From the IMG/VR virus record IMGVR_UViG_3300002461_000876: a stretch of DNA of 64,000 nt. One strand, written 5' to 3'. The notes beneath the pieces are model-generated. The model searched no databases and was not told the DNA's origin. It was given only the letters and a program-made list of their open reading frames with translations. The position numbers were made by a program, and so were the translations under genes. This document shows, one piece after another, positions 5,072 through 20,199 of the stretch (positions within the stretch are counted from its first letter, which is position 1; every line of letters begins with the position of its first letter). This DNA is from a virus.

Positions 5072-5105
5072 CCTCGGCGCAGGATTTCGAAGAAGGAGGA
5101 TCGAC

Positions 5106-6635
5106 ATGATCAGAAGAACTGCTGAGCAAGACCAACTGAACGAACTCTTTCACAAGGCTTGGGGGCAGGCCAAGGGAAGCCCCGAGTACGACAAGGAGGT
5201 CTGGCGACAGCTCGACATGGTCGTCTCTCCGATCATCGGATCCTCCGCACCCAAGACGGCGCTGGCCATGACCAGGAGCGCCGCAGAGAAGGACCGACTG
5301 AACGAACTCTTCCACAAGGCTTGGGGGCAGGCCAAGGGAAGCCCCGAGCACGACAAGGATGTCTGGCGACAACTCTCCAGGATCTTCTCTTCGATCGTCG
5401 GAGAGACTGCGCCCGAGACGACGAATGGCGAGCAGCTCGCACTGGAAACTGCCGCGCGCATCGCCCACGCCATAGCACCTGTCAATGGGTGGGCGCAGTG
5501 CCCGGCCCGCATTGGCGACCCGTCGATGCGATGCGCGCTGGCGTGGGGGCACGACGATCACGTCGCGAGGAACGCCCGCACTTCATCCTCGACCGACTCA
5601 TCGATCAGCAGTTGGCACGACTCGCACCCGGACACCGAAACTGGCTACAGCTGGGGCCCCGACGAGAGCCCACCATGTCCGCTCCCCCCGACCCTCGCCG
5701 AAGCCCAGGCTGAGTGGCGCAAGTCGCTGTGCGACATGGACTGCCATGACGCGAGCAGGCGCGAGGTTGCAGCGACGCACACGATCAACGGGCACTGGCC
5801 CGACTGCAACGCCAACCAAGTCGACCCAGAGCGAGGGCCGGCGCTCTCGGGGCGGTCCGGGAGGGTGGAGTGGGTGGTAGGTGTCGACGGTGGCGTTGCG
5901 ATTCGCGTCGGGGATTGCAGATTCAACGCGTTCATCGAGAGCACGGGCGAGTGCCGCAACGAGTTGCACGGGGACGGTCCCCTCGCGGACATGCGCGAGT
6001 GCCTGCGTCTGGCCGAGGCCGCGGACGGAGGGACGCAATCTCCATCCATCGTCTCGGGTCGGGACGATCTGCTCAAGCGCATCCAGATGTTGGAGCTCGA
6101 GCGTGACGGACTCAGCCTGATGGTTCAGGAGCTGGAGTCAGAGCGCGCAGGTGTCGTCGATCGGGTCCGATCCGAAGAGAGGATCCGTACCGCACGTCGA
6201 TTTGTAGGATGGATGAACAGCCTCTCGGAGGACAGCCGCGAGTGGGTCGAGTTCAACGGTGACTGGCCTCAGTTCATTGGGCACTTCGTCGAAGAGATGA
6301 TCATCGGTGATAGGCCGTGGCCGGAGGAGCAGCCCGACTACGCACCTGCAACCGTTTCGGATCCGTCGGTCTCCATGAACATCTACAAGATCATCGACGG
6401 GGAAGTGACCTACGTCTACGCGCAGAACGAGGACGATGCGAAGAAGATCTACTGCGAGGAGATGCTCGAAGGTCCTCCGCAGTCCGACATGAAGATCGAC
6501 GAGTTCCCCCGCGACAAGTGGGCGGACTTCGGGATCGTCGACGAGGAAGGAACGCGCACTACGTTCAACGTCGCCGTCGCTGAGTTCGGAAGCGACACCA
6601 CACCACGCATCCTGTGCTCCACCTGCTTCTCCTGA
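5106..6635 (+). CDS. Modular hypothetical protein with duplicated N-terminal 33-aa repeat
   Basis: AAGGAGG RBS; LNELFHKAWGQAKGSPE(Y/H)DKxVWRQL occurs twice; carries CDMDC and DPERGP modules. Confidence 0.75.
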   Translation: MIRRTAEQDQLNELFHKAWGQAKGSPEYDKEVWRQLDMVVSPIIGSSAPKTALAMTRSAAEKDRLNELFHKAWGQAKGSPEHDKDVWRQLSRIFSSIVGETAPETTNGEQLALETAARIAHAIAPVNGWAQCPARIGDPSMRCALAWGHDDHVARNARTSSSTDSSISSWHDSHPDTETGYSWGPDESPPCPLPPTLAEAQAEWRKSLCDMDCHDASRREVAATHTINGHWPDCNANQVDPERGPALSGRSGRVEWVVGVDGGVAIRVGDCRFNAFIESTGECRNELHGDGPLADMRECLRLAEAADGGTQSPSIVSGRDDLLKRIQMLELERDGLSLMVQELESERAGVVDRVRSEERIRTARRFVGWMNSLSEDSREWVEFNGDWPQFIGHFVEEMIIGDRPWPEEQPDYAPATVSDPSVSMNIYKIIDGEVTYVYAQNEDDAKKIYCEEMLEGPPQSDMKIDEFPRDKWADFGIVDEEGTRTTFNVAVAEFGSDTTPRILCSTCFS

Positions 6636-11181: not shown

Positions 11182-11456
11182 ACGACGGACTGTACCTCGT
11201 CAACGCCTACGACGTGTCCTCGCAAAAGGAGGACCTTGCCAAGATGCGTGACGCTCTGATCGAGAACGGGGCCCCTGACGCAGCGGCAGAGACTGCTGAT
11301 CTGCTCGCGACGATCCGTCAGTTCGAGGTCATCGCAGGCGTGCACATCGATCGCTTGCGAGGCGTGTGGAAGGAGACGGAGATGTGGCGAAGATGCAAAT
11401 CGAGTCGCGAAGATTTTGAGAAGGCGCTCGCGAAGTACCGACAGGGCATGAAGTGA
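11178..11456 (+). CDS. Hypothetical protein
   Basis: GGAGGAG RBS; 92 aa. Confidence 0.6.
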   Translation: MNDGLYLVNAYDVSSQKEDLAKMRDALIENGAPDAAAETADLLATIRQFEVIAGVHIDRLRGVWKETEMWRRCKSSREDFEKALAKYRQGMK

Positions 11457-11915
11457 TGGACTCGATGACGACATCAGCAGAGGCAGTCGCGGACATCACC
11501 AGCGATCCGCTGATCATCACGTCGAGGATCGCTCATGCATGCGGACTTCTCTGGGCCTCGTGTCCAGGATCGATCCCCTCCTCGATCTGCTCGTGCTCCA
11601 AGTACATCGGGCACATCGATCAGCATGTGAGCCACGGGTACTACTGGAACGACGCCGACGGGAGTTGGGTGGTCAAGGCGGGGCCGATGCCGTCGAGCTT
11701 CCAGCAGTGGTCCGACGATTACTTCGATCGATGCTCGAGACTGGGCATCGATCCGAAAGGACGAGGTCCGTCGCCGATCTGGTCCGACGGTCGGATCTTC
11801 TGGAAGGTCCTGGACCGGACCGCGCTGATCTCCGTGCGCGGTCTTAGGTCCGAGTTCTACATCGGATCGACGGACTTCTGCATCTCCGGAAGCGGAACGA
11901 TCGAGGACATGAAGG
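11453..11915 (+). pseudogene. 5' part of a gene interrupted by the transposon
   Basis: Frame ...GTIEDMK is broken at the TSD ACATGAAGG (11907-11915); removing the element joins it in frame to 19731-19825, restoring 185 aa. Confidence 0.85.
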
Positions 11916-11974
11916 GGCTTTGCCCAAGAAGTCCGCGCTGCCCAAGAACCCCGACGCCTGCCCAAGAAATCAGA
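11916..11974. repeat. Left end: TIR plus three TGCCCAAGAA sites
   Basis: TGCCCAAGAA at 11921, 11939 and 11959. Confidence 0.9.
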
Positions 11975-12037
11975 ACCTAGGGTGTGCGACGGCTCCGCAC
12001 GGGATCCCATCCCGGCGGAGCCTGAGGCTGCCCGTGT

Positions 12038-12988
12038 TCAGTCCACAGGCGTGAATCGGAGCTGGACGTCGAAGGTGTAGTTGGCATCGTGGCCGTAGGC
12101 GACGAAGCCGTCGTGGAGGTAGTCGATCGGCACGAACGTGCACTCGCCGTCCTCGGCGTAGCAGGCGATGTTCATGGGGTCGTTGGCGCCGAGGCCGTCC
12201 TCGTCGGAGAAGACGATCGACAGCACCTCGTTGCTCTGGAATCCGTCATCGATGTCGCTGTTGATCTCCACCTCGGCGCAGTCGTCCCACGCGGTCATGA
12301 CCGTGTCGTCGTGCGTCTCGGACTTGAAGACCAGATCGCCGCCGTAGAACACCGAGAAGTAGGCGTCGGCGTAGCAGTCGTCGAAGTCCCAGCACGTGGG
12401 CGAGTAGTCCGCCCAGAGGCTCACGCAGATCAGGTAGGTCCGACCCCACGGACCGGCGCACTCCAAGTCCGGCGTGCACACCTCGTCGATCTCGCAGTCC
12501 GCACCCCAGAGACAGGCGACCGCTCCTCCGCCACATGCCACGCCGTAGTCGTCGCAGCAGTCGTCGGCCGCGAGGCACGACGTGTCGCAGCGGCACAGGC
12601 CGTCGTTGGACGAGCCGCCGCAGTTCCCCTCGCACGAACCTTCGCCGTCGCCGGTCTCGCCCGACGTCGGATCGGCGGTCGGGTCGACGGTCGGGTCGGC
12701 GGTCGGATCGCTCGGGTCGGCGGTCGGGTCCGGCTTCTCGGTGTCGCCCTCGTCGGCGCCGTCGGATCCGTCGAAGTCGACGCAGAGTTGCGACGCACAG
12801 ACCAGCTCGCCCATGCACGACCCGCCGGTGTCGCACCGGCAGCCTTCGGTTCCCGCTTCACAGTCGCTGTTCGTGTCGGTCGGCTGCGTCGCGATGCCAG
12901 TCATCGTCACCGACGCCACCTGCTGGCCATCGTCATCGCCGCCGCCACACGAGGCCAGCAGCACCATCGTCAAGATCGCGTGCTTCAT
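12038..12988 (-). CDS. Cys-rich lipoprotein with somatomedin-B domain (transposon cargo)
   Basis: Lipobox LLASC; PTADP linker; CEGNCGG...CRCDTSCLAADDCCDDYGVAC matches SMB cysteine spacing. Confidence 0.8.
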   Translation of the reverse strand: MKHAILTMVLLASCGGGDDDGQQVASVTMTGIATQPTDTNSDCEAGTEGCRCDTGGSCMGELVCASQLCVDFDGSDGADEGDTEKPDPTADPSDPTADPTVDPTADPTSGETGDGEGSCEGNCGGSSNDGLCRCDTSCLAADDCCDDYGVACGGGAVACLWGADCEIDEVCTPDLECAGPWGRTYLICVSLWADYSPTCWDFDDCYADAYFSVFYGGDLVFKSETHDDTVMTAWDDCAEVEINSDIDDGFQSNEVLSIVFSDEDGLGANDPMNIACYAEDGECTFVPIDYLHDGFVAYGHDANYTFDVQLRFTPVD

Positions 12989-13017
12989 CCTGAGATCTCC
13001 TCCGGTCGCGATGGTAG

Positions 13018-13031
13018 TGACCTATAGGTCA
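13018..13031. promoter_or_regulatory. Perfect 14-bp palindrome, candidate operator
   Basis: TGACCTATAGGTCA lies between the divergent lipoprotein and HTH genes. Confidence 0.5.
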
Positions 13032-13065
13032 TCGTGCAAGCACGTGGGCCCGCTAGGGTCCGGCG

Positions 13066-13284
13066 GTGCAGCCGGCCGACTTCCGCCGGATCGTCGAGCA
13101 GAACATCCGATCGCGAGCGAAGAAGCGCGGCTTGAGCCTGAACGCGCTCGCGGACCTAGCAGGGATCGCCCGCAGTCCGTTCTTCCGGGCACTGGCCGGT
13201 CAGGCGAGCTTCACGATCGACCGGCTGTTCAAGATCGCCGCCGCCCTGGAGTGCCGCGTCGCCGATCTTGTGGCCGAGCCTTGA
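13066..13284 (+). CDS. Small XRE-family HTH regulator
   Basis: RSRAKKRGLSLNALADLAGIARSPFFRALAGQASFTIDRLFKIAAALEC. Confidence 0.8.
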   Translation: MQPADFRRIVEQNIRSRAKKRGLSLNALADLAGIARSPFFRALAGQASFTIDRLFKIAAALECRVADLVAEP

Positions 13285-13551
13285 CGCAGCGGCCGGCGAC
13301 GTCGGCCTGGCGGTTCGCGACGTGCCAGGTGTTCGTCGAGCAGCTCGCCGACCTCGCCGACCCGGTCATGCTGAGGTTCCACGGCGTCGATCCGGTGCGT
13401 GACGCTTGAACGCTTGCGCGTGCGTGCAAGCGTCGGCGCTCGCGATCACGCATCGCGTCACGGATCGACCACGGTGGAAGTTCGCGACGATCGTCTGCGT
13501 AGCCAGGACGAGCGCCATCACGGCGTGCTCTCTCACCTGGAATGAAGCAGC

Positions 13552-13839
13552 ATGACAACTCGCGAACCCACCGTCTGGTGGTACGTCTACAAGGGCGTCA
13601 ACCCAACCCGCCGCCTCGTCTACCACGGAGTCGCGCTCGATCCTGTCGCTCGCGCCGATGGCTTCCACTGCCGCGGCTCCACAAAGGTCATCGGAGACTG
13701 GAAGTGCGAGCAAGAAGGCGTGAAGTGGACGACACTGTCGCGGCACTTGACCCAAGAGAAGGCTACCGCAGTGTCGCACGCTCTCGAACGCGGGCCGTCG
13801 ATGCGCGGATACACGAACATCAAGACAGGTGGCGTGTAG
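13552..13839 (+). CDS. Small GIY-YIG-like protein
   Basis: WYVYKG...VYHGVALDPVAR resembles the GIY-YIG bipartite motif with its conserved Arg. Confidence 0.5.
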   Translation: MTTREPTVWWYVYKGVNPTRRLVYHGVALDPVARADGFHCRGSTKVIGDWKCEQEGVKWTTLSRHLTQEKATAVSHALERGPSMRGYTNIKTGGV

Positions 13840-13840
13840 C

Positions 13841-14095
13841 CTAGTTTGAGATCGAGCGACGTGTTACGGAACAGCCACGCTCATGGAGAACAGTGTCTCC
13901 GCACTCCGGGCATGCGAGCCGAGGTCCCGGAGGCGGTGGATGCGGAAGATCCACGAACGGCGGGTGATACTCGCACGCCTCGCAGAAGCCACAGTCATCG
14001 CAGAATGCATCGGCGTGGCAGCTCGGGCACCGCTGCCCACGCCGATGCAGGATGACGCGCATGCCGTCGGCGCGAAGCCTTGTCTTGGTGGCCAT
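13841..14095 (-). CDS. Small Cys-rich Zn-finger protein
   Basis: CPSC, CDDC, CEAC, CPEC motifs in 84 aa. Confidence 0.5.
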   Translation of the reverse strand: MATKTRLRADGMRVILHRRGQRCPSCHADAFCDDCGFCEACEYHPPFVDLPHPPPPGPRLACPECGDTVLHERGCSVTRRSISN

Positions 14096-14215
14096 GCCGA
14101 CGATCGTCTGCAAGATGGCGGGAAACCACAAGGCCGCAGAGAGACTTCCGTTTTCGGCAATCTTTTCAATTCGGTGGCGCACTGCCACGTGCGCGATCGC
14201 CCATGTGCGCGCGGC

Positions 14216-14386
14216 CTACTTCTGCTTGGGCGTGTCCCACCAGGCGGACTTGCACTTGGGGCAGATCCGGGGCGCGTCGGCCTTCGCGGTCTTCTTCGCC
14301 TTCGTCGCGCGAGGCGTCCGGGCGATCCACTCGTGCCCGCACCGCTCGCACCGGTAGCCGGGAACCTTGATCGTGATCTCCGCCAT
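14216..14386 (-). CDS. Small Zn-ribbon protein divergent from the transposase
   Basis: MAEITIKVPGYRCERCGHEW...RICPKCKSAWW, 56 aa. Confidence 0.7.
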   Translation of the reverse strand: MAEITIKVPGYRCERCGHEWIARTPRATKAKKTAKADAPRICPKCKSAWWDTPKQK

Positions 14387-14394
14387 CACGCTGG

Positions 14395-14443
14395 AGCATA
14401 CGGTGACGACCAACCTTGTCAAGTTTACCGGAATAAGTATACC
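14395..14443. promoter_or_regulatory. Overlapping divergent sigma70-like promoters
   Basis: Minus strand TTGACA-16 nt-TATGCT (14422 to 14395); plus strand TTGTCA-16 nt-TATACC (14416-14443). Confidence 0.5.
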
Positions 14444-14464
14444 TTCATCGGACGTCGGAGCAGC

Positions 14465-15661
14465 ATGCAGGACGAGCGACAGCAGAAGGGCCTCCAGATC
14501 GCCCGAGCGAAGCGGATCAAGAAGGCCGCCGGCAAGCTGTGGGTCGTCCCCTCGCAGAGCCACGCCGGGACCTACGTCGTCAACGTGGCGATCGGCACGT
14601 GCACGTGCCCGGACCACGAGACGCGCGACGTCAAGTGCAAGCATCTCTGGGCCGTTGAGTACGTGCGCCATCGGGTCCTCAACCCCGACGGCACCAAGGT
14701 CGAGACCGAGGCACTCCGCGTCACGTACACGCAGAACTGGCCCGCCTACCACGCGGCGCAGTGCGCCGAGCAGGAGCAGGTCCAGCTTCTCCTTCGGGAC
14801 CTGTGCGAGCAGATCGTCCAGCCGCCGCACCACGGTCGCGGTCGACCGCCGGTGCTCCTCGCCGACGTCGTGTACGCCGCGACGTTGAAGATCTACAGCG
14901 GCGTCTCGGGGCGCCGCGCGACGACCGAGATCAAGGAGTGCGCGACCAAGGGGATGATCGAGCACGCACCCTGCTACAACACGATCTTCAACTACCTCGA
15001 CAAGCCCGAGCTGACGCCGCTGCTCACGGGGATGATCGAGCAGTCCGCCACGCCGCTACGGGCGGTCGAGCGGGACTTCGCGGCGGACTCTACGGGATTC
15101 TCCACCTCGGTCTACCGCCGCTGGTACGACCACAAGTACGGCCGCGAGATGAAGGAGCACACGTGGCTCAAGGCGCACGCCATGATCGGCGTCGTCACCA
15201 ACGTCGTGACCAGCGTCATCGTCACGCCGGGCGACGCCCACGACGCGCCCGAGTTCCCGGCTCTCGTCGCCGCGACCGCGCGCGGGTTCGAGGTGGCGGA
15301 GGTCTCGGCGGACAAGGCGTACCTGTCCCATGCCAACCTCGCCGCGGTCGAGGCGGCCGGCGGCAAGCCGTACATCCCCTTCAAGTCCAACTCGACCGAA
15401 CGCGGATCGCCAGCATGGGAGCGCCTGTTCCACCTCTTCGCCATGAACCGGCCCGAGTTCCTCGCCCACTACCACAAGCGGAGCAACGTGGAGGCCACCT
15501 TCTCGGCGATCAAACGGAAGTTCGACGGCTCGATCCGGTCGAAGCGGTACGACGCCCAGGTCAACGAGATCCTCTGCAAGTTCCTCTGCTACAACCTCGC
15601 GACCCTGGTGCACGCGATGTTCGAGCTCGGCGTCAAGCCGACCTTCGCCAAGGTCGCCTAG
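14465..15661 (+). CDS. DDE transposase (IS5/IS903-like) with N-terminal SWIM Zn finger
   Basis: SWIM CTCPD...CKHLWA; AADSTG, SADKAY and YHKRSNVEATFSAIKRKF catalytic motifs; 398 aa from ATG 14465. Confidence 0.92.
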   Translation: MQDERQQKGLQIARAKRIKKAAGKLWVVPSQSHAGTYVVNVAIGTCTCPDHETRDVKCKHLWAVEYVRHRVLNPDGTKVETEALRVTYTQNWPAYHAAQCAEQEQVQLLLRDLCEQIVQPPHHGRGRPPVLLADVVYAATLKIYSGVSGRRATTEIKECATKGMIEHAPCYNTIFNYLDKPELTPLLTGMIEQSATPLRAVERDFAADSTGFSTSVYRRWYDHKYGREMKEHTWLKAHAMIGVVTNVVTSVIVTPGDAHDAPEFPALVAATARGFEVAEVSADKAYLSHANLAAVEAAGGKPYIPFKSNSTERGSPAWERLFHLFAMNRPEFLAHYHKRSNVEATFSAIKRKFDGSIRSKRYDAQVNEILCKFLCYNLATLVHAMFELGVKPTFAKVA

Positions 15662-15899
15662 GTCGAGCGGGCCCGTCGTCGACGGCCCGCACGAACGGTC
15701 CCTGTAGCGGACGGGAGGCCGCCGACCAAGGCGATCGTCGTGATTGCCGCCCGCGAGCACGGACGACTCGCTTGTCACGGTCCTTGCCGGAGGACCCGGA
15801 TGATCTGCTCGGCGCTCGAAGTCCAAGGCGACCGCCGCGCCGGTCGTCATCGCGATGCAGCGGTCGACAACGACGCAGGTTCAGCGCGCCGAGCTCGGC

Positions 15900-16070
15900 G
15901 ACCGACTCGCCGGGGCCACGCACGTGCGGGGCGATCGTCCGATCGCCCCGCAGGTGGGCGACGAGCTCCGGCAGGCTCGAGACCGCGAGCACCTTGAGCC
16001 CTGGGATCAGCGTCGCCTCATCGGCGTTGTTCGCGGGCGATCACGATCGTCGAGACACCAGTGATGCCGT
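15900..16070 (-). pseudogene. Frameshifted fragment resembling ComM/YifB
   Basis: TIVI / PANNADEATLIPGLKVLAVSSLPELVAHLRGD is split over two frames and resembles the YifB N-domain end. Confidence 0.4.
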
Positions 16071-16294
16071 AGATCGGCGTCAGGCGGTTGGTGCGAGCGT
16101 AGTCGGCGAAGTCGTCGTAGAGCCCGACGCTCGGGGCTCGTCGTGGCCGAGGAGTCGGCCGGGCTGGTCGCTCAAAAGGCGCTCGCAACGCTGGGCTGAT
16201 CCCCAAGATGCTGAGTGCGCACAGGGCGCTCCACAACCAGTTGGGTCTGCCATCTTGACACACGCAACGAGTTGGGGATCGTCCCCTCTCGGCG

Positions 16295-16606
16295 TTGGAC
16301 TTCTTCGTACAACCTGTGCACACTTCCCAAGTGAACGGCTTCAAGATCCTAGTGATCGAGCGCGATGGCTATTTTGTCGCCCAGTCGCTTGAGAAGCACG
16401 TTGTGGTTCAGGCGCGGACTCTGGAGGATCTCCAGATGTACTTCATCGACACCCTGATGACGTACGCGTTCCTCGACGAACTAGCGGACGTCCCGCCCCT
16501 CAGCAGCCTCGAGCCCGCGCCGCCCGAGGTGTGGGAGCAGTGGAACGCCGCCAATCCGCTCGTGCTCCCGTCGGCGGACAAGTACGATTTCCGCCTTGCT
16601 GCGTGA
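16295..16606 (+). CDS. HicB-like antitoxin-fold protein
   Basis: ILVIERDGYFVAQSLEKHVVVQARTLEDL pattern; TTG start. Confidence 0.5.
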   Translation: MDFFVQPVHTSQVNGFKILVIERDGYFVAQSLEKHVVVQARTLEDLQMYFIDTLMTYAFLDELADVPPLSSLEPAPPEVWEQWNAANPLVLPSADKYDFRLAA

Positions 16607-16923
16607 TTCGCGACGGCGGTAGCATCCGAGGGGTGGCCGCACCTCTCGGATGGAGACCGACACTTCGCGAGTTCGCCAACGTGCTTGGGCGGCATCCGTT
16701 CGGCGTGAAGGTCTACGAGCACCCTGGAGCCTGCGCCGGGCACATCCGGCAGGCGTTCTTCGTACGCCGTGACTCCGCCGGGCGCGTGCGCACCGCCGTG
16801 CACCCGGCCGACTGGGACATGGTGGTCGATCCGATCCTGCTCACCGACCTCCTCAAGCGGCTCGGCATCGAGGCGGCGGACTACGCGAACGCGATCAACG
16901 AGGACGATCTCGAGGTCGGCTAG
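16603..16923 (+). CDS. Coupled partner of the HicB-like gene, possible toxin
   Basis: GTGA overlap; TLREFANVL...LLTDLLKRLGI. Confidence 0.4.
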   Translation: MIRDGGSIRGVAAPLGWRPTLREFANVLGRHPFGVKVYEHPGACAGHIRQAFFVRRDSAGRVRTAVHPADWDMVVDPILLTDLLKRLGIEAADYANAINEDDLEVG

Positions 16924-17070
16924 TACCTCGCGCCACGGTTCGATCCAGCGCCCGCTTCGGCGCTCGGGCAAGCGCGAGCGCCGTTCGCAACCGCGCGCCA
17001 ACTCCGTGGTGGCGCAACGTGTGCAAGATCGCAGCCTCATACTGCACGCACTGCTACGCTCATCGGCTCG

Positions 17071-18105
17071 ATGAACGATCCGATCACACCACGTGCCACC
17101 GCGGTCTCTGAGAAGAAGGACGCCGATGTGCTCGTCCTCAGCGGGTCGATCGACGACGACAGCTTCCGAAAGTTGCTCAACTACTGCCGCATGCGGACGA
17201 GGAAGAATGTGCTCCTCGTGTTGGTCACCAACGGAGGCGATCCGCATGCGGGCTACAAGATAGCCCGCATGCTGCAGCGAACCTACGAGAACTTCACCGT
17301 TCTGATCGCTGGACCGTGCAAGAGCGCCGGAACGCTCGTTGCTCTCGGGGCTCGCGAGATCGTGATCGCGGATACCGGAGAGCTAGGCCCCCTCGACATC
17401 CAGCTGCTGAGCCGGGAGCATCTCGGTGAGCGCGACTCGGGCAACGACATGACCTACGGGATCACCCACCTCGGGATCGACGCCATGGGCCAGTTCTTCG
17501 AGTGCTTCAAGACGCTCGCGTCGAGCCTTGAGACGAAGATCGCAGCTGAGGCTGCATCGAAGCTGGTCGGCCGGCTGTATGGCCGCGTCTTCGACTCCGT
17601 TCATCCGCGGCACATCGGATCGGTCGTGCGCGCCAACCAGCTCGGGTCCGAGTATGCCAAGCGCCTGATGTCACCGTCCAGGAACCCAAACATCGACAAG
17701 GCCATCCATCGGCTCGTGTACACGTACCCAGAGCACGGCTTCGTGATCGATCGGGAAGAGGCCGCGTCCTTCCTGCCCGGGGTGCGCGCTCCTGACTCAC
17801 TCGAACAAGACCTAGTCGACACTCTCCGGTGCCAGGAGGTGACTTCGAACACTTACGTGTTTCGGCTTGCGCCGGAACTTCCCAATGCCACAGAAAAGGA
17901 AGAGGATGCCCGCGATGAAGACGCCGCCGACACCGCAGCAGACGCCGAGCCCACTCCTGCAGGACCTGCGGCAGGCCCAGCGCCTCCGCCAGGACGCGGC
18001 CCGGGCGACGGCGGAGGGAGTGCGATCGCAGGTGACGCACGACCGGGAGCGACCGACGGTCCCGTCGGAGAACCTGCCGACGACGGTCCGCCCGTGACCA
18101 ACTAG
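17071..18105 (+). CDS. SDH_sah / ClpP-class serine peptidase
   Basis: TNGGDP, CKSAGTLVALGAREIVIADTGELGPLD, YPEHGFVIDREEA; low-complexity C-tail. Confidence 0.8.
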   Translation: MNDPITPRATAVSEKKDADVLVLSGSIDDDSFRKLLNYCRMRTRKNVLLVLVTNGGDPHAGYKIARMLQRTYENFTVLIAGPCKSAGTLVALGAREIVIADTGELGPLDIQLLSREHLGERDSGNDMTYGITHLGIDAMGQFFECFKTLASSLETKIAAEAASKLVGRLYGRVFDSVHPRHIGSVVRANQLGSEYAKRLMSPSRNPNIDKAIHRLVYTYPEHGFVIDREEAASFLPGVRAPDSLEQDLVDTLRCQEVTSNTYVFRLAPELPNATEKEEDARDEDAADTAADAEPTPAGPAAGPAPPPGRGPGDGGGSAIAGDARPGATDGPVGEPADDGPPVTN

Positions 18106-18506
18106 CCGAACTCCGGCCAAGCACAACGCCCGAGATCCGGTCGCGGCCGCCGCCCGCTTCGCTGGTTAGGCCCGAGACCGTGGCGCGAGGACCGTCGAGC
18201 CGGCGCTTGACCCGGCAGCGGCGCTTGTGTTCCTCGAATGGCTGATCGTCCGCGCCGTCCGCCGTAGCGTCCCGCGCGGTTCCGGGAGGAGCGTCGAAGG
18301 TCAAGCCCCAAACAGTTTGCGCGATGTGCCCGGTGCGCCCGATGCGACGTGGTGGGCGACCAACCGGCCGCATGTCGCGACTCGGATCGCATCCGGCGAA
18401 CTCGGCGCGCGCCAAAGAGTCTCTTCTGCTCCCGGACGTTCCGGCGGCGCTGGTGAGGCTCTGGCCCGCAGCGGGTACGTCTGGTCGTCGTGGTAGTGTG
18501 AAGACG

Positions 18507-19064
18507 ATGACGAGCGAGGAGTACGCCGACTGGGTCCGTCTCCGGGAGGCGGTGTTCGAGGCCCGTCAGAGTGCCGACGTGGCGCGCCGCTACTACCGCA
18601 AGATGGCGAACCGGTTCCGCAGAGTTGAACTCGGGATGAACATCGCGATGCTGACCGTGCAGGCGAGTGGCGTGGCTGCTTTGTTCGCTGAAGTTCCGGG
18701 CTGGTCGATCGCGTTGGGGATCGTCGCCGCCGTGCTCACGATCCTGGCGGCGATGCATCGAAACGGGGACCGGCGCGCAGAGCATCTACTCGCGGCCCGA
18801 ACCGCCGGAACGTCCCACGCGAAGTGGGATGAGCTGTGGCGCGAGATCTCCGGCACGCCGACATGGGGGACCGCGCTTGCGAAGCGGGTTAGCGCCGCGA
18901 CGAGCGTCGATGTAGAGAACGAGAATTCAATGACCGAGGAGCGAGTCCAGAAGCTGTGGACGGAAATGGAGAAGGCTGTGGTCCGGAGCATAGACCCGCG
19001 TGAGCTCGCGCCCGAGCAGCCGTCGTGGGTGGCTGAGCTTGGAATTCTTCCGGAAGGATCGTAG
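18507..19064 (+). CDS. SLATT-like 2-TM effector
   Basis: Helix, two TM segments, then RRAEHLLAARTAGTSHAKWDELWREI. Confidence 0.55.
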   Translation: MTSEEYADWVRLREAVFEARQSADVARRYYRKMANRFRRVELGMNIAMLTVQASGVAALFAEVPGWSIALGIVAAVLTILAAMHRNGDRRAEHLLAARTAGTSHAKWDELWREISGTPTWGTALAKRVSAATSVDVENENSMTEERVQKLWTEMEKAVVRSIDPRELAPEQPSWVAELGILPEGS

Positions 19065-19650
19065 AGATCCAGCATGTCTGATCCACGGCCCGGCACGAGG
19101 CAAGACGGTACGTACACGCGCAACCTGCCGCCGGCACGGCCCGCTGCGCCCTCTGTTCCGGCACCGCCACCTGCGGACGGCCCTGCAACCTCCACGCCCT
19201 CGACGCCTCCAGCGCAGCGCCGTTAGTTTCGGGGTCCCGCCAAAGCCCGGGCGCTGCCTTCGTGAAACTCCGGCCCCAAGCTCGGGCATCAAGCCCGCTA
19301 CAGCGCCAGGATCGTCGCCACCGCGGCCGTCCAGCGCCGAAGCTTCCGCTGCGCTCCGACCAGGCCGAGTTCAGGCCACAGCGACGCGACCGCCGACTCC
19401 ATGCTCAGCCTGCTGCTGGATTGCCTGGCGTCGCGGTACTCGGCGGAGCTGGCCGAGATCGAGGATGTCGGGCCGCGGCCGCGCGGGCACCGAACGTCAT
19501 CCGCGCCGTCGGGCAGTGCCCGACGTGACGAAGACCGACGCGCACGCACGCCGAGAGGCACATCGAAGCGCTCCGATGGCTAGATGACCAGGAGGCTCGT
19601 CCGGTCGTTCGTGCCGCGATCGGCCAACGGCTCGCGGAGCTGACCTAGCT

Positions 19651-19721
19651 CCGACGCGTGCCCAAGAAATCAGACGACTGCCCAAGAAGTCGCGCGTCCG
19701 ACCCATTTCTTGGGCAAAGCC
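19651..19721. repeat. Right end: two direct TGCCCAAGAA sites plus the inverted TIR
   Basis: Sites at 19659 and 19679; inverted site at 19707-19716; 19651-19674 matches 11951-11974 at 23/24. Confidence 0.9.
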
Positions 19722-19825
19722 ACATGAAGGAACTGACCAGGATCACCGAGCGTGCGGTCGGTCGAAAACCGGGCATGGTTCGACCCTCCGTCCGCTGGCC
19801 GCTACCCAAGTCGACGCGGGTTTGA
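19722..19825 (+). pseudogene. 3' part of the interrupted gene
   Basis: MKELTRITERAVGRKPGMVRPSVRWPLPKSTRV* continues the frame of 11453. Confidence 0.8.
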
Positions 19826-19827
19826 CC

Positions 19828-20199
19828 ATGGCGATGACGGAAGACGAGATTCTCGAGGTCATGAAGACGATTGATGAAGACGCCGATGGTCTTCGCATGA
19901 CCGGATCGACATGGAACGACTGGGGCGAGATCGAGTTCGTGACACCATCAGGTTGGCGCGTATCGGTGTTCAACGATTGCGGATCATGGGATTACATCGA
20001 CAGCATCCACAACCCTGAAGGCGTGTGCGTCTGGAGCGTTCCTAGCGAAGGCCCAAAGCCTCGAGATCCTATCTTCAACTTCACGCCGAAGAACATCGAC
20101 GCGTGGATCAACGCTCCACTTGTCGGATCTCCGCGTTCGAAGAAGAGAAAAACGTTGCTCCAGTCGATTTTATCCTGGTGGATGGATCTACTTTCCTAA
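19828..20199 (+). CDS. Hypothetical protein
   Basis: 123 aa ORF resuming the phage operon. Confidence 0.6.
   Translation: MAMTEDEILEVMKTIDEDADGLRMTGSTWNDWGEIEFVTPSGWRVSVFNDCGSWDYIDSIHNPEGVCVWSVPSEGPKPRDPIFNFTPKNIDAWINAPLVGSPRSKKRKTLLQSILSWWMDLLS

Follow-up and report, generated by a model that had tools for sequence, protein, structure and literature searches.

An open question at this locus is whether a 7.8-kb segment that splits a resident gene of a phage-like genome is a genuine mobile element, and if so what kind of transposase moves it together with so many other genes. To determine if the segment has the boundaries expected of a transposon, we examined both of its ends within the window, meaning the whole 64-kb stretch of DNA that was analysed. 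The 9-bp sequence ACATGAAGG at 11907-11915 is followed by GGCTTTGCCCAAGAA at 11916-11930, and the reverse complement TTCTTGGGCAAAGCC at 19707-19721 is followed by a second ACATGAAGG at 19722-19730, which together bound an element of 7,806 bp. The 15-mer occurs only at these two places in the window, with 2 perfect matches against 0.10 expected with up to 2 mismatches, and 0 of 100 shuffled sequences reached 2. By our calculation, a perfect 15-bp inverted repeat plus a 9-bp direct repeat has an expectation of about 2e-6 for all pairs within 10 kb in 64 kb (4^-24 x 6.4e8). Joining position 11915 to 19731 gives an open frame of 185 aa reading ...TIEDMK|ELTRITER..., and an independent 181-aa protein, P0271, reads ...TIEDMKELTRITEH... 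without interruption. These results confirm the initial annotation, which had described an intact single-transposase cargo transposon with perfect 15-bp ends and a 9-bp duplication, and had reported that excision restores a 185-aa frame.

We next asked which genes the element carries. The initial count of about ten passenger genes is fair, as we count nine or ten ORFs besides the transposase, although one of them, the Zn-ribbon gene, belongs to the conserved core rather than the cargo. One correction is required: the 592-aa ORF at 13883-15661 is not the transposase, because about 1,500 homologues of roughly 400 aa align only to its residues ~195-590, and the true start is the ATG at 14465, giving a protein of 398 aa. 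The features of the locus are as follows.

11453..11915 (+), 5′ part (154 codons plus 1 base) of the interrupted resident gene, the last 9 bases of which are the left copy of the duplication; 88% identical to the intact 181-aa P0271, with no Pfam family
11907..11915, left copy of the 9-bp target-site duplication, ACATGAAGG
11916..11930 (+), left terminal inverted repeat, GGCTTTGCCCAAGAA, with the same heptamer as IS903B
11921..11968 (+), three copies of the 10-bp site TGCCCAAGAA at element positions 6, 24 and 44, all in the same orientation
12038..12988 (-), cargo, 316-aa Cys-rich lipoprotein (lipobox LLASC) with a somatomedin-B-like domain (PF01033, 9.9e-7) and a Pro/Thr/Asp repeat linker; GC3 0.91
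13066..13284 (+), cargo or regulator, 72-aa Cro/C1-type HTH protein (PF13443, 5.4e-8), weakly similar to the HTH gene of L002, a sibling element
13552..13839 (+), cargo, 95-aa ORF of unknown function with a coding-type GC3 pattern, called as a gene in the ENA record, no family hit
13841..14095 (-), Cys-rich small ORF (about 84 aa), uncertain gene, weak zf-CXXC hit (0.008)
14216..14386 (-), core, 56-aa Zn-ribbon protein (CxxC...CxxC; PF23470, 1.7e-6), transcribed divergently from the transposase gene
14465..15661 (+), transposase, 398 aa, with an N-terminal SWIM finger, a linker and an IS903-type DDE core with the Y-x2-R-x3-E-x6-K motif
16316..16606 (+), cargo, 96-aa ORF of unknown function, supported by GC3 pattern and the ENA gene call, no Pfam, NCBIfam or PADLOC hit
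16603..16923 (+), cargo, 106-aa ORF of unknown function, supported by GC3 pattern and the ENA gene call, no family hit
17071..18105 (+), cargo, 344-aa ClpP-fold SDH-type serine peptidase with a low-complexity C-terminal tail (PF01972, 5e-7, and NF047768, 2e-10, both below cut-off)
18372..19064 (+), cargo, two-transmembrane-helix protein, faintly SLATT- or 2TM-effector-like (NF033634, 0.003; PADLOC 2TM effector, 0.004)
19298..19561 (-), possible 87-aa ORF, uncertain, with a GC3 pattern and an ENA gene call, no family hit
19659..19688 (+), two inner 10-bp sites of the right end (element positions -63 and -43), in the same orientation as the left-end sites and so not mirrored
19707..19721 (-), right terminal inverted repeat, TTCTTGGGCAAAGCC
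19722..19730, right copy of the 9-bp duplication, ACATGAAGG
19731..19825 (+), 3′ part of the interrupted resident gene (31 codons plus stop), aligning to the C-terminus of P0271 and, at 91%, to positions 681-785 of L123, the contig that carries the empty allele

To determine if the element has moved, we searched for uninterrupted alleles and for further copies. An empty allele of the split gene was found in L123 (Logan SRR29498908), which is 88% identical and colinear across the junction, carries a single ACATGAAGG and encodes a 181-aa product that reads straight through. Additionally, a second contig, L126 (Logan SRR8367301), holds all 7,806 bp with 0 mismatches next to a different 30-nt flank. 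This flank matches a deltaproteobacterial MAG contig exactly (LNFB01000119.1), where the sequence runs on uninterrupted inside a gene for an SBBP/DUF4215 protein. The second site rests on the 30-nt flank plus one base at the edge of a short-read contig; that single base after the element in L126 is g, as a GCGCGGCCT duplication predicts. The composition of the element also differs from that of its surroundings, with 66% GC in the element and 61% in the flanks. The inference of recent insertion in the initial annotation is supported by an identical copy at a second site.

We then considered the identity of the transposase. The 398-aa protein matches PF01609 (DDE_Tnp_1; 2e-21), and residues D208, D283 and E343 and the motif Y336-R339-E343-K350, numbered on the window protein as the reference sequence, are invariant in 32 homologues. 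The CxCx9CxH pattern of the N-terminal SWIM finger is invariant. The protein aligns over the whole IS903B transposase at 25% identity, with the DSTG, SADxAY and RSxxE blocks matched. An AlphaFold model has a pLDDT of 88.7, and its top Foldseek hits are the ISCth4 and Tn5 transposases. In a profile search against NCBIfam, the IS5_2 model NF033579 was the best model for both the window protein and IS903B, yet the window protein scored 119 bits and the protein P0001 123 bits, below the cut-off of 140 bits, while the IS903B control scored 355 bits.

To ask if the element has relatives, loci with homologous transposase genes were searched for an exact 9-bp duplication plus GGCTTTG-type ends. We delineated 62 siblings, and 58 of the 63 family members including the window's element start with GGCTTTG on the left. 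Siblings are 2.0-9.3 kb, with a median of 4.1 kb for the 63 elements; none is a bare IS, and no left end lies closer than about 420 bp to a transposase gene in about 120 loci. The 10-bp sites are also a family trait: the left-end positions recur in most of the 55 of 63 members that have at least two forward copies at the left end, a forward, non-mirrored copy at the right end occurs in 50 of 63, and the site sequence co-varies within each element while site positions are conserved. The nearest sibling, L002, with an 81% identical transposase, shares only the ~60-bp ends and the Zn-ribbon/transposase block and has its own duplication, CGTTCAGAG. Homologues of the Zn-ribbon protein with the same motif at the same place occur in about 21 of 63 elements, and no second gene is universal in the family. 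Cargo turns over fast, is held in one or two "bays" on either side of the core, and is rich in DNA methyltransferases and restriction genes.

We conclude with high confidence, although transposition itself was not observed directly, that window positions 11916-19721 are an intact, autonomous, single-transposase unit transposon of the transporter IS (tIS) type, which moved very recently as one 7,806-bp piece and belongs to a very large IS5-derived family. We infer that the transposase binds the 10-bp sites, which are arrayed three per end at +6, +24 and +44 on the left and at -15, -43 and -63 on the right, so that the two ends are not mirror images. It would then pair the ends, cut at the GGC termini in an inferred cut-and-paste reaction and join them to target DNA cut with a 9-bp stagger, the repair of which gives the ACATGAAGG duplication. 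Everything between the ends travels with the element, and the Zn-ribbon protein is probably a regulator; the function of this copy's cargo is inferred.

The element was next compared with known systems. IS903B also begins with GGCTTTG and has a DDE_Tnp_1 core with the Y-R-E-K motif, and IS903 elements typically make 9-bp duplications, as seen here in 63 elements. However, IS903B is 1,057 bp with one CDS, whereas in this family passenger genes are the rule, the transposase has an extra ~73-residue N-terminal SWIM domain, and there are three binding-type sites per end instead of one inverted repeat. Transporter IS of the IS1595 and IS66 families likewise have IS-like ends, one transposase and passenger genes that move with the element, but their transposase families are unrelated, and here cargo is near-universal across the family rather than an occasional variant. 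The ends of Tn7 and phage Mu resemble those described here in having arrays of repeated sites within about 70 bp of each end, with left and right arranged differently. Those systems use multi-protein machines (TnsABC+D/E; MuA/MuB) and 5-bp duplications, while here there is one 398-aa protein and a 9-bp duplication; no TnsA, TnsB or TnsC family was found in the element, there is no TnsB- or MuA-type sequence relationship, and TnsB appears only as a remote match through the shared RNase-H fold (TM-score 0.16-0.23). The Tn5/IS50 transposase (IS4 family) shares the PF01609 domain, the Y-R-E-K motif and 9-bp duplications (Foldseek probability 1.00, TM-score 0.41), but is about 10% identical, lacks a SWIM domain and has 19-bp single-site ends, with cargo only in the composite Tn5. 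In MULE/MuDR-type eukaryotic transposases a SWIM CxCxnCxH finger is also attached to a DDE transposase, but it lies C-terminal to an IS256-like core, suggesting that the N-terminal finger on an IS903-like core is an independent fusion. The element is not a Tn3 family transposon, which would have a TnpA of about 1,000 aa, ~38-bp ends, a 5-bp duplication, a resolvase and a res site, as no resolvase or Tn3 transposase family was found in any ORF. Nor is it a composite transposon, as there is one transposase gene and the end motif occurs only at the two termini.

We considered whether the family is already catalogued, which would make the element an ordinary member of a named IS5 subgroup or transposon family. 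IS903-like ends and 9-bp duplications are textbook, and the family is huge, with 957 representative clusters at E<=1e-30 and 586 or more genome loci; curators may well have met it. Against this possibility, NCBIfam carries models for the ISfinder families and the protein falls below the cut-off of the best of them, all source names seen are plain "transposase", and no paper in the literature searched combines SWIM zinc finger, transposase and IS5 family. Further, the 2021 TnCentral paper states that tIS are restricted to IS1595 and IS66, no record among 50,697 phages carries the enzyme, and the best plasmid hits are IS903B or ISRhba5 at about 25% identity. We consider prior cataloguing unlikely, and the suggestion in the initial annotation of a poorly described class fits these results, although without a comparison against ISfinder and TnCentral themselves we cannot say that the family is uncatalogued. 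It is very unlikely that this copy is a dead relic or a non-autonomous passenger that needs a helper encoded elsewhere. Decayed derivatives do exist in the family, such as L041, a 2,015-bp element with perfect ends but only the last ~76 residues of the enzyme, and activity has not been assayed; in the present copy, however, every invariant residue is present, the reading frame is whole, the ends and duplication are perfect, and the same 7,806 bp with zero differences occupies two unrelated sites. Finally, although high-GC DNA is rich in chance repeats, with 594 inverted pairs in the region, an ordinary small IS within a non-mobile island bounded by coincidental or foreign repeats, or an assembly artefact, can be all but dismissed, as the outer repeats are those that flank the homologous enzyme in 62 other loci, always with a 9-bp duplication, no left end lies within 400 bp of any transposase gene in about 120 loci, two assemblers (ENA and Logan) give identical junctions and the empty site matches base for base.

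Insertion sequences of the IS5/IS903 type are treated as ~1-kb elements that carry nothing, and in the 2021 TnCentral description no tIS belonged to the IS5 family. Here a single small transposase of IS903 ancestry moves units of up to 9 kb, in a family with thousands of members across distant phyla, which gives a simple, one-protein route for spreading defence and counter-defence genes that are easily mis-annotated as static "islands". The conserved end signature, GGCTTTG plus three co-varying 10-bp sites at fixed spacing, allows automatic delineation of such elements, and a compact single-protein system that tolerates 9 kb of cargo may be of use as a genetic tool for Myxococcota, Chloroflexota and other hard-to-engineer groups. 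It is about as likely as not that this copy would be the first characterised member of an unrecognised, family-level group of IS5-derived "cassette-carrier" transposons, defined by a SWIM-plus-IS903-type transposase, 3+3-site asymmetric ends, 9-bp duplications and one or two cargo bays. Under this hypothesis the group is spread across many bacterial phyla, DPANN archaeal MAGs and viral contigs, cargo is obligatory and is swapped faster than the transposase diverges, and the elements serve as a major vehicle for methyltransferases, restriction enzymes and other conflict genes and hop between a host chromosome and the mobile DNA infecting that host.

We also asked if the replicon carrying the element is a phage, which is only partly supported. 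There was no nucleotide match to 50,697 phage records and no capsid, portal or terminase match among the 20 window ORFs scanned, with only weak matches (E about 1e-5 to 1e-8) of one ORF to "virion structural protein" families. The identical copy in a bacterial locus and in a phage-like 175-kb contig is a concrete case of a transposon crossing between a host chromosome and an infecting element, and it points to a likely host for that contig.

To determine if the proposed insertion is bounded by true transposon ends, both junctions were read directly from the sequence. The left junction reads ...GAGGACATGAAGG/GGCTTTGCCCAAGAA and the right junction reads TTCTTGGGCAAAGCC/ACATGAAGGAACTG, with the slash marking the element boundary, which defines an element of 7,806 bp with the following features:

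11907-11915, left copy of the 9-bp direct repeat, ACATGAAGG
11916-11930, left end of the perfect 15-bp inverted pair
19707-19721, right end of the perfect 15-bp inverted pair
19722-19730, right copy of the 9-bp direct repeat, ACATGAAGG

The 15-mer occurs nowhere else in the window, even when two mismatches are allowed, and it is not expected by chance, with 0.10 matches expected and 0 of 100 shuffles reaching two. The element is 66% G+C, compared with 61% for the rest of the window. Removal of the element and one repeat copy joins 154 codons to 31 more, reading ...TIEDMK/ELTRITER..., as the initial annotation had stated.

We then asked if the uninterrupted target exists. Searches for exact empty-site patterns in IMG/VR and in JGI metagenome contigs gave no match, and the N-terminal part of the split gene found no relative in IMG/VR. 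The exact left end was likewise absent from JGI metagenome contigs and a flank 34-mer was absent from IMG/VR; the window's contig is in neither collection. A search of a protein collection with the N-terminal part of the split gene did identify one relative, P0271, which is 181 aa and 88% identical and which reads ...TIEDMKELTRITEH... straight through the junction. Its 994-bp contig (L123, Logan SRR29498908) aligns to the restored window sequence at 88% over 785 bases with a single ACATGAAGG, and this is the empty allele that the initial annotation had called for. The related genome also lacks the DUF7693 gene lying just downstream of the split gene (window 19822-20199, against L123 785-808), since L123 jumps from window 19826 to 20199, and this represents a second gene-sized difference between the two relatives.

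The window comes from a 175,068-bp contig of an activated-carbon metagenome (ENA ERZ922818 / SRR2905791), and an independent Logan assembly of the same run has the same junctions. A search with the exact transposase sequence also returned a contig from another run (L126, SRR8367301), which consists of 30 bases of unrelated flank, all 7,806 bases of the element with no mismatch, and one further base. The 30-base flank is absent from the window and matches exactly a contig of a deltaproteobacterial MAG (LNFB01000119.1, 71% G+C), where the sequence continues uninterrupted (...GCGCGGCCT/CGTTC...) inside a gene for an SBBP/DUF4215 repeat protein. The one base after the element in L126 is g, as a GCGCGGCCT duplication predicts. 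It is important to note that this second site rests on a 30-base flank at a contig edge. With that caveat, the two occupied and two empty sites show that the whole unit, cargo included, has moved between two replicons so recently that not one base differs.

We found that the 592-aa ORF containing the transposase is misleading as a gene call. Roughly 1,500 homologs of about 400 aa cover only its last two thirds, representative-level hits start at its residue ~197, and the GC3 phase changes near 14420, whereas the ATG at 14465 gives an N-terminus that matches the family consensus. The resulting 398-aa protein has a SWIM finger, with C46, C48, C58 and H60 invariant as CxCx9CxH, followed by a low-confidence linker and a PF01609 core with invariant D208, D283 and E343 and the motif Y336-x2-R339-x3-E343-x6-K350. 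The best NCBIfam model for this protein is IS5_2, at 119 bits against a cut-off of 140, while IS903B from a Klebsiella plasmid, used as a control, scores 355 bits on that model. IS903B is 1,057 bp, has one CDS and starts with GGCTTTG, and the two proteins align over the whole of IS903B at 25% identity with the catalytic blocks matched. A profile of the transposase searched against PDB sequences gave only chance hits. The AlphaFold model is confident (pLDDT 88.7) and its best structural matches are the ISCth4 and Tn5 transposases. We conclude that the enzyme is an IS903-type core with an added N-terminal SWIM domain.

Relatives of the enzyme are very numerous, with 957 clusters at 50% identity with E<=1e-30, 39 loci in IMG/VR and at least 586 loci in species-representative genomes. 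They occur in Myxococcota, Chloroflexota, Acidobacteriota, Planctomycetota, Verrucomicrobiota, Gemmatimonadota, Alphaproteobacteria and Acidimicrobiales. Family members also occur on contigs binned as DPANN archaea (L045, L106 and L112, labeled Aenigmatarchaeota or Woesearchaeota), of which L106 is 33% G+C with AGCTTTG ends, although binning errors were not excluded. One viral contig (IMGVR_UViG_3300037083_000054, 122.8 kb) carries three different members within about 55 kb (L018, L020 and L036), with transposases 42-45% identical to that of the window, and only L036 could be delineated with a perfect duplication.

To delineate related elements, 121 loci were searched for an exact 9-bp repeat flanking a 15-bp inverted repeat, with at least 11 of 15 positions matching, around the transposase gene. 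We estimate the chance rate of this search at about 0.04 per locus. Sixty-two siblings were recovered, all of which have GGCTTTG-type termini. Sixty-one of these are 2,667-9,340 bp long, and the remaining sibling (L041, 9851-11865) is a decayed copy of 2,015 bp with perfect 15/15 ends and a 9-bp duplication but only the last ~76 residues of the transposase, making it a likely non-autonomous, deleted copy. The median length, counting the window's element, is 4,132 bp, and the window's element is the second largest. No delineated element is a bare IS, and in the loci without a perfect duplication the nearest left end with the family's site signature is still at least 550 bp upstream of the gene.

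The nearest sibling, L002, has an 81% identical transposase and lies on a 176-kb phage-like JGI contig. It is 6,687 bp long with the duplication CGTTCAGAG, and it shares with the window element only the ~60-bp ends and the Zn-ribbon/transposase block, while the cargo is unrelated. A gene with an Acb2/Tad1 hairpin domain (6190-6417), an anti-CBASS/Thoeris sponge family, lies about 200 bp upstream of the left end of the L002 transposon, with one small gene (6414-6617) in between. The second-closest transposase, P0002 (74% identical, Logan SRR16971104), has an 872-aa MmeI-like type IIG restriction-methylase gene 1.6 kb upstream, probably as cargo.

We examined the architecture of the ends across the 63 elements. 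In most elements the 10-bp core of the terminal repeat recurs at positions 6, 24 and 44 of the left end, always in one orientation, and at least two such copies are present in 55 of 63 elements. The right end shows a different pattern, where the terminal copy at -15 is inverted as expected, the copy at -43 has the left-end orientation, with a non-mirrored copy of this kind present in 50 of 63 elements, and the copy at -63/-64 occurs in either orientation. The site sequence differs between elements (TGCCCAAGAA, TGCACAATAA, TGTATCAAAA and others), yet all copies within one element agree. Fixed positions with co-varying sequence are what binding sites of a co-evolving protein look like, and we infer that the N-terminal SWIM region reads them. 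In 14 elements the right end begins only 57-69 bp after the stop codon, so the right array directly abuts the gene. The duplicated 9-bp targets of the 63 elements show a faint, weakly palindromic CCnnnnnGG preference, with C at positions 1-2 and G at positions 8-9 (information content up to 0.38 bit).

To ask if a second transposition gene is universal in the family, we clustered all ORFs of the 63 elements and found that the transposase is the only universal gene. A 44-64-aa Zn-ribbon protein (motif ...RCxRCxHxW...CPKCKSPYW...) lies divergently upstream in about 21 elements, including that of the window (14216-14386), and others have a small HTH gene in that position. The + strand ORF at 14052-14357 is the shadow of this conserved Zn-ribbon gene on the other strand, and we do not consider it to be a gene.

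Cargo changes much faster than the enzyme. Two elements with 99% identical transposases share 30% of their cargo and differ by replacement of two blocks, one on each side of the core. Of 24 pairs at 71-87% identity, 23 share 0-15% and one shares 46%. Among the 60 largest cargo ORFs, 12 are DNA methyltransferases, 6 carry a P63C domain, and others are BstXI-type, Mrr-type, GmrSD-type and HNH nucleases and NA-iREase1 proteins. There are also M78 peptidase plus HTH pairs, AAA_21/AAA_15 ATPases, one nested rve integrase and one further SDH peptidase. The cargo of the window's element comprises a Cys-rich lipoprotein, an HTH protein, several small ORFs of unknown function, an SDH/ClpP-fold peptidase and a two-TM protein with faint SLATT/2TM-effector similarity. 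A PADLOC search of this cargo gave only faint hits, to an HTH control protein at 1e-4 and to a 2TM effector at 0.004, and the function of the cargo is not established. A reading of 16316-16923 as a HicB-like pair was rejected, as it has no Pfam, NCBIfam or PADLOC support.

The element works like IS903, with the same terminal heptamer, the same 9-bp stagger and the same catalytic core, however it is not a member of that group by the curated score, by size or by gene content. It fits the definition of a transporter IS. The multi-site, non-equivalent ends recall Tn7 and Mu, but without their multi-protein machinery. We found no description of the family in the literature searched, and sources name these proteins only "transposase"; because ISfinder and TnCentral were not part of the comparison, we cannot exclude that the family is already catalogued, although we consider this unlikely. 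The element is of interest because of the size and phyletic breadth of the family, its apparently obligatory, rapidly exchanged and defense-rich cargo, the conserved 3+3-site end design, and the identical copy found in a bacterial locus and in phage-like DNA.

Finally, we considered the nature of the replicon carrying the element. Nucleotide searches of the element and of its left flank against 50,697 phage records gave no match. No capsid, portal or terminase match was found among the 20 ORFs scanned, and one ORF gave only weak matches to "virion structural protein" families. The window does encode a DUF927 primase-like protein, a Dda-like helicase, an AAA ATPase and several proteins matching phage orthologous groups. 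We refer to the replicon as phage-like, not proven phage. It shares a distant nucleotidyltransferase homolog with the L002 contig. Two 136-bp stretches of the window (5105-5240 and 5267-5402) inside the 509-aa ORF at 5106-6635 are 85% identical to each other, representing an internal tandem duplication.
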